Below are positions 47,882-50,170 of a stretch of DNA of 64,000 nt, piece by piece; position 1 is the stretch's first letter, and each line of letters starts with the position of its first letter. The position numbers were made by a program, and so were the translations under genes. The DNA comes from Pseudomonas phage EL. The notes beneath the pieces are model-generated. The model had not been told where the DNA came from. It worked only from the letters and a program-made list of their open reading frames with translations, and did not search any database. Location: the sequence record AJ697969.1. One strand, written 5' to 3'.

Positions 47882-50170
47882 TTGATTATGCGAGCAACAG
47901 CAACTATCAGCAAAGCGAATCATTACTTCAGAATCAACGGGTTCTATGAGGAATTCGCGGTTCGGGTAATCCTACCGTTTTGTAAACTGAATCTCTGCAA
48001 GATGGCTAAGAAGCCAATACCGGGTACCCGGAAGCAGGCGTGGTTTGTTCAACACGTCTTTGCTCGGTCGAATTATGACAAGAGTGAATACCGGCTACCC
48101 ATTGAAACCCTTAAAGAGTTTGTGGAATTTGCGGGCTACCGGGGGTATAAAGAATCCCGCTTGAAGATTCAGGATGAACCGGAGATCGAAGGCAAGGATG
48201 TTGTATTCGAATTCAATCCAGGGTTTGATCAGTTCAGGGAAGGTCAAGGTGAATGGATTGAGTACATGCTGAGCGATGGGCACCTGAAGGTCAATAACGC
48301 CTCCACAGGCTTTGGGAAGATGCAACCGCTGTACGCGAAGATCAAAGTCCCGGGTGGTTGGAAGACAATGAGGGAGATGACCGTCGGTACCGAGGTCATT
48401 GCAGCGGATGGTACGGTCACTCAGGTGACTGGTGTTTACCCACACGGTAAACAACCCATTTACCGTTTGCACTTCGAAGACGGGCGTTATACCGATGCAG
48501 GACTGGATCACCTGTGGAAAGTGTTCACAGAGGAGACTCAGGCATGGACAGTCGTTAATACCCGTTCCGTACAGACCCTGTTGGCGAAAGAGCCGGATGG
48601 GGTATTTATCCCTCTGTGTGAGCCTGAAGACGGTCCGGAGAAGCCCTTTGTAACGGACCAATTGGAAGGTTCCCGCCAACAACGGTTGGAACACCTACGA
48701 CGACTCATGGATGAGAAAGGGTATGTGCGTGATGACGGTAGTCTGTCCTTTTCCAGTGAGGATGAGGTGGAAAGCACTACGGTTCAATACCTGGTTAGGA
48801 GTCTAGGGGGTATTGCCCGAAAGGTACCGTCTACAGGACTGTACCGCCGCAGGCAATACCGGGTGTACATCAAGCACCCTCGTCCTGAGGAACTCTTTAC
48901 CCTGACGAATAAGGGTGGCTACCTGACATCAAAGTCGGGTAACCAGTCCCTTAAGCTCCGGGTGAACCGCATTGAATTCATTGGGGAACATGAAGCCCAG
49001 TGCATCTCTGTAGCACACCCGGATCGTCTGTACATCACGGATGACTTCATCGTCACCCACAACACCTATATGGCCATCCACAGCATGGTGAAGATTGGTA
49101 AACGGACCTTAATCACCATGCAACCCCGTTACCAGATCAATTGGGTACGGGAACTCAACAAGATCGTTAAACTCATTCCAGGGGATCTCTTAATCTGGGA
49201 GAATACCCTGGAATCGTTGTATGAGTGTTTAGAAGACGGGAAGTTTGATCCTAAGATCATTATTATTCCGATGTCTCGTATTGAGGTCTTCCTCCGTAAA
49301 GGGAAAGAGACCCGAGACGGGTTACACATGGATGATTTGATCAAACGGATCAATCCGGGATTAAGGATCATTGATGAAGGGCATGAAGCGATTCATCAGA
49401 TCTTCTTGTCCTTAATGTTTGGGAATATCAAGAAACTCTTCCTGCTCTCAGCCACCTTGAAAGCAGACGATCCCTTTACGAACAAGATGTACCAGTACTT
49501 GTTCCCTAAACGGTTACGGTTAAAGGAGGCGGAACCCGAGCATTACATCGATGTAGTGGCGTACCTGTATCGCCTCAACACCCGTCGTTATCATCTCAAG
49601 ACGGAGCAGTTTGGAGCGTATAACGATAAGACGTTTGAAAAGAGCATCTTAAAGTCGGGTGTACTCCTGGCATTCTACTTTAAATTGGTCAATAAGGCCT
49701 TTAAGGAGTATTACCTCAATGTGAGGCGTGAAGGAACGAAGTGTTTGTTCTTCTTCTCCAGGGTCAGTATGTGCGATGCCATGTTGGAACTGTTCAGGAA
49801 AGAATATCCCGGCTGGGATTTCGAAACCTTTACTGGGGACGATTCCAAGCTGAAAGATAAGAAGGACAAGTACTTAAAGCACGAGATCATCATTACAACT
49901 CCGAACAGTTGTGGAACAGGTAAGGATATCGGGGGGTTGGTGACGGTGATCTGCGCCCACACGGTTGCGTCGACTCAGGCTAATAAGCAGATCATTGGAC
50001 GACTCAGGGCGTTGTCGGGTAAGTTCAATAATGAGATCGACCCTGCCTTTGTGTTCCTGGTGTGTTTGGACTTAGCGAAGCACGTGGAATATTTAGCCAA
50101 ACGGGAACAGGTGTTCTTTGAGAAACAGAAGACCTTCAAGCGTATCAATTCGGAATGCTCCCTGGACTGA
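47882..50170 (+). CDS. SF2 DEAH-box helicase interrupted by a mini-intein in the Walker A P-loop
   Basis: extein junction NASTGFGK|TYMAIHSMV reconstitutes GxGKT; downstream IIDEGHEA (DEAH box); AAGAGG RBS. Confidence 0.7.
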   Translation: MIMRATATISKANHYFRINGFYEEFAVRVILPFCKLNLCKMAKKPIPGTRKQAWFVQHVFARSNYDKSEYRLPIETLKEFVEFAGYRGYKESRLKIQDEPEIEGKDVVFEFNPGFDQFREGQGEWIEYMLSDGHLKVNNASTGFGKMQPLYAKIKVPGGWKTMREMTVGTEVIAADGTVTQVTGVYPHGKQPIYRLHFEDGRYTDAGLDHLWKVFTEETQAWTVVNTRSVQTLLAKEPDGVFIPLCEPEDGPEKPFVTDQLEGSRQQRLEHLRRLMDEKGYVRDDGSLSFSSEDEVESTTVQYLVRSLGGIARKVPSTGLYRRRQYRVYIKHPRPEELFTLTNKGGYLTSKSGNQSLKLRVNRIEFIGEHEAQCISVAHPDRLYITDDFIVTHNTYMAIHSMVKIGKRTLITMQPRYQINWVRELNKIVKLIPGDLLIWENTLESLYECLEDGKFDPKIIIIPMSRIEVFLRKGKETRDGLHMDDLIKRINPGLRIIDEGHEAIHQIFLSLMFGNIKKLFLLSATLKADDPFTNKMYQYLFPKRLRLKEAEPEHYIDVVAYLYRLNTRRYHLKTEQFGAYNDKTFEKSILKSGVLLAFYFKLVNKAFKEYYLNVRREGTKCLFFFSRVSMCDAMLELFRKEYPGWDFETFTGDDSKLKDKKDKYLKHEIIITTPNSCGTGKDIGGLVTVICAHTVASTQANKQIIGRLRALSGKFNNEIDPAFVFLVCLDLAKHVEYLAKREQVFFEKQKTFKRINSECSLD
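48320..49063 (+). mobile_element. mini-intein (248 aa) with degenerate homing endonuclease, inserted after GK of the helicase P-loop
   Basis: starts MQPLYAKIKVPGGWKTM (Met1), Hint block VYPHGKQPIYRLHFEDGRYTDAGLDHLWKV, only the second LAGLIDADG half remains (LMDEKGYVRDDGSLSF...VQYLVRSLGG), ends LYITDDFIVTHN with +1 Thr. Confidence 0.65.

Follow-up and report, generated by a model that had tools for sequence, protein, structure and literature searches.

A putative class 3 intein with a vestigial half-endonuclease in the Walker A loop of a predicted DExH helicase of Pseudomonas phage EL

The DNA analysed here, a stretch of 64,000 nucleotides (nt) from Pseudomonas phage EL (sequence record AJ697969.1; hereafter the window, to which all positions refer unless another record is named), contains an open reading frame (ORF) for a predicted superfamily 2 (SF2) DExH helicase that is interrupted by a 744-nt in-frame insert of 248 amino acids (aa) at 48320..49063 on the plus strand. 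The ORF ends at 50170; mechanically it begins at TTG 47882, and annotated relatives begin the helicase at ATG 47888. Its translation reads VNNASTGFGK/MQPLYAKIKVPGGWK...LYITDDFIVTHN/TYMAIHSMVK (slashes mark insertion points throughout), the insert ending in DDFIVTHN. The N-extein (47888..48319, plus strand) stops at ASTGFGK, the first seven residues of the Walker A motif, and the C-extein (49064..50170, plus strand) supplies the Thr at +1 (49064..49066) that completes its GK-T, followed by DEGH (49373..49384) and a Helicase_C-like domain. Jumbo phages of Pseudomonas aeruginosa in the genus Elvirus (Chimalliviridae) share 94-99.7% identity with the window (97-99.7% for MIZ-Pa99 and phiRU); eight such genomes were taken from the databases (phiRU, HHBS8_1, HHBS47_1, MIZ-Pa99, IR-QUMS-PaBa1, vB_PQ1, GXNNE2, and GXNNA8), and the genes of the window have the same coordinates as in MIZ-Pa99. 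In Pseudomonas phage vB_PaeM_GXNNE2 the helicase shares 99% identity over the exteins, and precisely ORF residues 147-394 are absent from it; its allele reads ASTGFGK/TYMAIH, an intact Walker A (AxxGxGKT). At the DNA level, the gap in a 7-genome alignment likewise spans 48320..49063 (744 nt), its placement being ambiguous by 1 nt. Because GXNNE2 lacks exactly these 744 nt, the insert is a true indel with the boundaries given here, and a chance motif match is excluded. A first-pass annotation of this DNA, made from the letters alone, had placed a 248-aa insert at these positions, which proved exact to the base, and its expectation that the junction TGFGK/TYMAI restores Walker A is borne out by the GXNNE2 allele.

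Motif II of the helicase reads DEGH (DExH) and not DEAH, as it was first called. With the insert removed, the spliced helicase matches the DNA helicase family phrog_16 (2.6e-49) and falls just below the Pfam cut-offs for both DEAD (24.1 bits, cut-off 26) and Helicase_C (21.8 bits, cut-off 23.5). The DEAD match is visible only when the intein is removed; with the intein in place, Helicase_C alone is seen. The G+C content is 53% for the insert, 46% for its exteins, and 49% for the window. Two other readings of the locus were rejected. A split gene with an internal translation start at Met1 of the insert is disfavoured by the lack of a spaced Shine-Dalgarno sequence (GGGAAG abuts the ATG) and by a continuous frame with conserved N- and C-exteins. 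An antisense ORF of 199 aa (48095..48694, minus strand), which overlaps both the N-extein and the intein's first half, has neither homology nor other support and is probably spurious.

Sequence comparison assigns the insert (Met1-Asn248) to the class 3 (WCT) inteins, which were defined, with their Trp-Cys-Thr triplet, by Tori et al. 2010 (PMC2807308) and most of which lie in P-loops of helicases and of phage terminases (PMC2807308). The insert plainly belongs to an established type of element; class 3 inteins in phage P-loops have already been described. The predicted triplet consists of Trp66 (block B:12; 48515..48517), Cys228 (block F:4; 49001..49003), and Thr246 (block G:5), and the +1 residue is Thr. 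His64, Trp66, Cys228, and Thr246 align to His65, Trp67, Cys124, and Thr143 of MchDnaB1, and His247 and Asn248 to its His144 and Asn145; the catalytic roles of the MchDnaB1 residues were described by Beyer et al. 2020 (PMC7664689). An alignment of 63 family sequences shows no variation at C228, T246, H247, and N248 and more than 90% conservation of H64 and W66. The residues fall in two Hint lobes, an N-lobe of aa 1-70 (48320..48529, plus strand; block B His64 at 48509..48511) and a C-lobe of aa 206-248 (48935..49063, plus strand; block G Thr246-His247-Asn248 at 49055..49063). The intein was identified by a PDB sequence search, the family alignment, and an AlphaFold2 model, Pfam giving no family at E <= 0.1 and hence no match to LAGLIDADG_3 or Hom_end. 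The PDB structures closest in sequence are the class 3 DnaB-1 inteins of Mycobacterium chimaera (6rix, 6riy) and M. smegmatis (6bs8). The AlphaFold2 model, computed with the family alignment as input (predicted local distance difference test, pLDDT, 94.9; predicted template modelling score, pTM, 0.91), comprises a Hint domain and one alpha-beta-beta-alpha-beta-beta-alpha unit. In Foldseek searches, PI-SceI was the best match over the whole model (query-normalised TM 0.74-0.78), the Hint part matched the class 3 DnaB intein 6bs8 (TMt 0.87), and many solved inteins were matched with a probability of 1.00.

Two paralogous class 3 inteins lie in the same window. The first (45446..46543, plus strand; 366 aa from Ala1 to Asn, Ser+1) interrupts a gene (44708..47818) for a beta/beta'-like RNA polymerase subunit, lies 1.8 kb upstream of the helicase intein, and is precisely absent from GXNNE2 at NAAGK/SLTNNGK. 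The second (11621..12559, plus strand; 313 aa from Gln1 to Asn, Thr+1) lies in the Walker A motif PRQQGK/T of the terminase large subunit; no intein-less terminase allele was found among the eight Elvirus genomes, and the boundaries rest on motifs and on the allelic terminase intein of phage Eowyn. All three share a (D/E)HLW block B, a block F Cys (QCISV, QCITI, and TCIEV), a VTHN end, and Thr or Ser at +1; residue 1 is Ala in the RNA polymerase intein, Gln in the terminase intein, and Met in the helicase intein, where the boundary is set by the intein-less allele. The helicase intein is 49% identical to the RNA polymerase intein (tblastn E = 1e-31 and 4e-24) and 33% identical to the terminase intein (2e-11 and 1e-10), in agreement with the homology first proposed.

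Compared with the RNA polymerase intein, the helicase intein lacks ~107 residues, which correspond to the first LAGLIDADG helix (YVLGVLLGDG) and its beta-core, and retains the second half. The first-pass annotation had described a half-decayed homing endonuclease of which only the second LAGLIDADG half was kept. Alignment of the three inteins upheld this, revealing neither a complete endonuclease domain nor a lack of homology, and the retained motif is itself degenerate. The missing half would follow EKPFVTD in an extension or linker of aa 71-114 (48530..48661, plus strand), and the vestigial second half-domain occupies aa 115-205 (48662..48934, plus strand), with the degenerate motif LRRLMDEKG at 48695..48721 and an LVRSLGG motif that is kept. 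In an alignment of 102 family members, the helicase intein has 10 residues in the first-half region (median 91) and 76 in the second (median 85). The remnant shares 51% identity with residues 225-366 of the RNA polymerase intein, and in the AlphaFold2 model it forms a helix (119-133), strands (134-136 and 142-146), a helix (149-161), strands (165-172 and 178-185), and a helix (189-192). Compared with the family motif LQGLMDTDG, Gly3 is replaced by Arg (Gly in 95% of members) and the catalytic Asp8 by Lys (Asp in 86%), in the window and in all five aligned Elvirus carriers. With a single half-domain, no acidic residue at position 8, no small residue at position 3, and no Pfam match, the helicase intein does not look like an active two-motif LAGLIDADG endonuclease. 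Nor is it the mini-intein it was at first called, a term strictly reserved for inteins of ~130-200 aa without an endonuclease domain, as it has 248 aa and a folded, conserved half-domain of ~90 aa. Because the catalytic Asp and the helix-packing Gly are lost, the remnant would be a scaffold rather than half an enzyme.

The three inteins form a gradient within one genome. The RNA polymerase intein has both motifs intact (VLGVLLGDG and LQGLLDTDG) and is recognized by Pfam LAGLIDADG_3 at 3.3e-11; the terminase intein keeps both endonuclease halves with both motifs spoiled (LGLIYCGQDQDG with an insertion, and LQAFLDVRG with Asp replaced by Arg); and the helicase intein is half-deleted, with its second motif spoiled. 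A fourth Elvirus intein lies outside the window, in the P-loop of a 940-aa SNF2-like helicase of phiRU (5570..6355 of L012, phiRU record ~169.6-170.4 kb, minus strand). It has 262 aa (AMPLSTRV...YIVTHN/T), is also class 3, and retains only a degenerate second endonuclease half and a WSIGG motif. Each Elvirus genome carrying the helicase intein has four intein places. All four inteins sit between Gly-Lys and Ser or Thr, at three of the sites within a true Walker A loop. The exception, GERNAAGK/SLTNNGK in the RNA polymerase gene, is not a nucleoside triphosphatase P-loop and mimics the last P-loop residues. Since it shares only these last residues, the sequences suggest that the site preference of the family is set by the residues at -2, -1, and +1 (GK/S or GK/T) and not by the fold of the host protein. 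At the DNA level the three homing sites in the helicase, RNA polymerase, and terminase genes are unrelated; cleavage of the helicase site by the RNA polymerase intein enzyme (trans-homing) is therefore unlikely, and was rejected, the reconstituted 48-bp targets sharing 13-18 of 48 bases against ~12 by chance.

The terminase intein is present in all eight Elvirus genomes, while six carry both the RNA polymerase and the helicase intein and two (GXNNE2 and GXNNA8) cleanly lack both. The 744-nt helicase intein frame is open, without indels, frameshifts, or stops, in the window and in all five aligned carriers. Ratios of non-synonymous to synonymous substitution rates (dN/dS), estimated by the Nei-Gojobori method, were 0.02-0.03 for the helicase exteins, 0.05 and 0.06 for the Hint N- and C-lobes, 0.15 for the half-endonuclease remnant (15 synonymous and 6 non-synonymous variable codons), and ~0.9 for the linker, which has few sites. 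Although the numbers are small, these values argue for purifying selection on the remnant, as opposed to free drift, and for an element that is constrained and spliced. Synonymous divergence among Elvirus genomes was 0.11 for the helicase intein, 0.06-0.09 for its flanking exteins, and 0.04-0.05 for the RNA polymerase intein; together with the G+C content, this hints that the two inteins may differ in residence time or source. Frameshifts were observed in the RNA polymerase intein of two carriers, namely a 1-nt deletion in HHBS8_1 (window equivalent 46314) and a 5-nt deletion in MIZ-Pa99 (window equivalent 45962..45967, where other carriers have 6 nt). They break the annotated RNA polymerase gene into two or three coding sequences and may be sequencing errors or a real disruption of an essential gene.

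Taken together, we consider the insert to be a splicing-competent class 3 intein in a helicase precursor, with a vestigial endonuclease and no mobility of its own, at a probability of roughly 0.88. Its open frame and the low dN/dS of the Hint lobes lend indirect support to splicing, for which it is very probably competent. Modelled on the class 3 route of Tori et al. 2010 (PMC2807308) and Beyer et al. 2020 (PMC7664689), the intein would be translated in frame within the precursor, and splicing would be started by the block F Cys228 instead of residue 1. Activated by His64, Trp66, and Thr246, Cys228 would attack the Lys(-1)-Met1 peptide bond and take the N-extein as a thioester; the N-extein would be transferred to the hydroxyl of Thr+1, cyclisation of Asn248 would free the intein, and an O-to-N shift would form the GK-T bond and with it the Walker A loop. 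With only the second LAGLIDADG half left, and with Lys in place of its catalytic Asp, the helicase intein is not expected to cut DNA or to home by itself. The probable reason why the remnant is retained is that folding and splicing of the Hint domain depend on it. The intein would persist through vertical descent and ordinary recombination between phages, and hypothetically it may also be carried by co-conversion over the 1.8 kb to the RNA polymerase intein, whose intact endonuclease would drive the gene conversion.

Several observations weigh against parts of this account. Met1 is unusual in the family, most members of which begin with Ala. The selection estimates come from six closely related genomes, two of them identical, with few substitutions. 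The co-occurrence of the RNA polymerase and helicase inteins hangs on effectively one intein-less lineage (GXNNE2 and GXNNA8). Finally, the helicase-intein alleles of the two carrier clades are 5.6% apart, compared with ~1.5-2% in the flanks, so that one recent shared conversion does not look likely. The GXNNE2 flanks are nearest to those of IR-QUMS and MIZ-Pa99 (2-4 differences per ~600 nt), and with the carrier-clade alleles differing to this extent the intein polymorphism is embedded in a mosaic, recombining phage population.

To place the helicase intein in a wider family, protein searches were made with the 248-aa intein alone, which gave 3 matches, and with the alignment of the three inteins, which gave 141 relatives, metagenomic in origin. 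Nearly all start with AQPL and end with VTHN followed by Thr or Ser, and they are inserted after the P-loop GK of PhoH, RecD-like, SNF2, terminase, or DnaB proteins, or at a second site in PhoH. Of the 102 aligned members, the six that do not exceed 280 aa (the EL helicase intein, the metagenomic P0006 inserted at the identical helicase site, the intein of the SL2 SNF2 helicase, that of the Eowyn terminase, the RecD-like P0110, and the DnaB P0121) have all lost the first endonuclease half and kept the second, and the reverse layout occurs in none. The fourth Elvirus intein, which is outside this alignment, has the same second-half-only layout. Except for the pair of EL helicase intein and P0006, the nearest relatives of each short member are full-length inteins, which implies several independent deletions of the first half, at least four or five. 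The catalytic Asp has also been lost from other shortened relatives (Cys in SL2, Asn-Ala in Eowyn, and lost too in P0110 and P0121). Conservation in full-length members is higher in the second half than in the first (entropy 2.07 vs 2.43). The LVRSLGG motif of the second half persists even in dead copies, and of the motif's two Gly residues the first is invariant.

Tentatively, decay in this family might be directional and halt at a defined intermediate, the first half being lost repeatedly and the dead second half, with its LVRSLGG helix, being retained under selection, either as an integral module of Hint folding or splicing, or in a new role, for instance in binding DNA or the exteins. Half-endonuclease inteins would in that case constitute a stable architectural class and not a transient snapshot. 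This asymmetry between the halves is the sole part of our observations that may go beyond what is already described. The first-pass annotation had seen in the helicase intein a snapshot of endonuclease degeneration within one genome. The gradient over the three inteins is real, but the word overstates the flux, because the remnant is under apparent purifying selection and its layout recurs in other lineages, which gives it the look of a stable end-state.

Other explanations of the insert are less compatible with these data. It is improbable that the intein is a domesticated conditional switch, in which splicing through the block F Cys is gated by redox or another signal to time helicase activation and the remnant is kept for regulation. 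The closest solved relative, the M. smegmatis DnaB intein (6bs8, class 3), is reportedly an oxidative-stress sensor, and purifying selection extends across the whole intein, remnant included. Moreover, H2O2 inhibits N-cleavage of MchDnaB1 (PMC7664689). However, such selection is expected for any intein at an essential site, the insert is dispensable in a viable, near-identical phage with an intein-less allele, and nothing in the data is specific to regulation. Very improbable is a half-domain that still acts as a homing endonuclease by forming a homodimer, like the single-motif I-CreI, and allows the intein to home alone. Although the half-domain is folded with high confidence and purifying selection apparently acts on it, and although near-identical phages differ in whether they carry the intein, the Lys at position 8 and the Arg at position 3 in the window and all five aligned carriers, the lack of a Pfam LAGLIDADG match, and the loss of the Asp in the independently shortened SL2, Eowyn, P0110, and P0121 inteins speak against activity. 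Least probable of all is a decaying pseudo-intein that no longer splices and leaves the helicase inactive or insert-tolerant, for which the class offers a precedent in the Arthrobacter Arth_1007 class 3-like intein pseudogene (PMC3196547), as the catalytic residues are all intact, the Hint lobes have a dN/dS of 0.05-0.06, comparably low to that of the exteins, six genomes are free of frameshifts and stops, and ATP binding would be lost, in a gene otherwise strongly conserved, if the 248 aa between Lys and Thr of Walker A were not spliced out.

The intein-bearing helicase is a member of a transcription-gene neighbourhood. Two genes for beta/beta'-like subunits of a phiKZ-type multisubunit RNA polymerase lie directly upstream of it (42362..47818; phrog_3015 for 44708..47818), and a further RNA polymerase subunit is annotated in relatives at 51558..52859 (minus strand). 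The inteins explain the oversized look of the Elvirus helicase, RNA polymerase, and terminase genes, and also their mis-annotation. Several GenBank records (GXNNE2, L001 1925..5545; IR-QUMS) name the RNA polymerase subunit and the helicase "terminase large subunit", and the GXNNE2 note "intein-containing" is attached to intein-less alleles. When searched alone, the helicase and RNA polymerase inteins (48320..49063 and 45446..46543) match PHROG families named terminase large subunit, DNA primase, and DnaC-like helicase loader; the wrong gene names spread because intein sequence is embedded in PHROG profiles. No paper naming the phage EL inteins was found in literature searches; InBase presumably lists them as "PhiEL ORF11, ORF39, ORF40 and Helicase".

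No new mechanism is revealed here. Class 3 inteins of phage P-loop ATPases have been known since 2010. One phage genus nevertheless offers a natural series of intact, point-inactivated, and half-deleted endonucleases together with natural intein-less alleles, which suits tests of the homing-cycle model, of co-conversion of neighbouring selfish elements, and of the need for the remnant in class 3 splicing. In the homing-endonuclease life cycle of invasion, fixation, degeneration, and loss (Burt and Koufopanou's model, as summarised in PMC1508164), the terminase intein, fixed in 8/8 genomes with spoiled motifs, the polymorphic RNA polymerase intein with intact motifs, and the half-lost helicase intein all find a place. 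The model fits less well in that the degenerate helicase intein is not fixed, one lineage being without it, and in that its remnant is conserved and not eroding. For PRP8 inteins, no intermediate-length or remnant forms were reported (PMC1508164), whereas the present family has several intermediate-length forms.

Among known inteins, the class 3 inteins of P-loop ATPases (DnaB of mycobacteriophage Bethlehem, and DnaB-1 of M. smegmatis and M. chimaera; 6bs8 and 6rix) share with the EL helicase intein a non-nucleophilic residue 1, Trp at B:12, Cys at F:4, Thr at G:5, a His-Asn end, Thr or Ser at +1, and a position in the P-loop of a helicase-type ATPase. At 139-145 aa and without any endonuclease remnant, the solved DnaB-1 inteins are true mini-inteins, while the EL helicase intein has a ~90-aa half-LAGLIDADG domain and a 44-aa extension, starts with Met instead of Ala, and resides in a phage SF2 DExH helicase and not in DnaB. 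The yeast VMA1 intein PI-SceI and PI-PfuI share the layout of a LAGLIDADG domain between Hint blocks B and F, at a sequence identity of ~10%; by contrast, they belong to class 1 (Cys1) and have two complete LAGLIDADG halves with proven endonuclease activity, where the EL helicase intein has the second half only and no catalytic Asp. Also comparable are the paralogous and allelic inteins of other chimalliviruses and jumbo phages, including those of the FishSpeaker SNF2 helicase (~354 aa), SL2_135 (273 aa), the Eowyn terminase (256 aa), and P0006 (280 aa), which belong to the same family, are 35-57% identical, and follow the GK/T rule. The short members SL2_135, Eowyn, and P0006 share the layout in which the first half is lost and the second kept, and within this group the EL helicase intein has the smallest first-half remnant (10 residues, compared with 25-31 in its relatives); P0006 keeps a stub of the first LAGLIDADG helix and the catalytic Asp of motif 2, both of which the EL helicase intein has lost.

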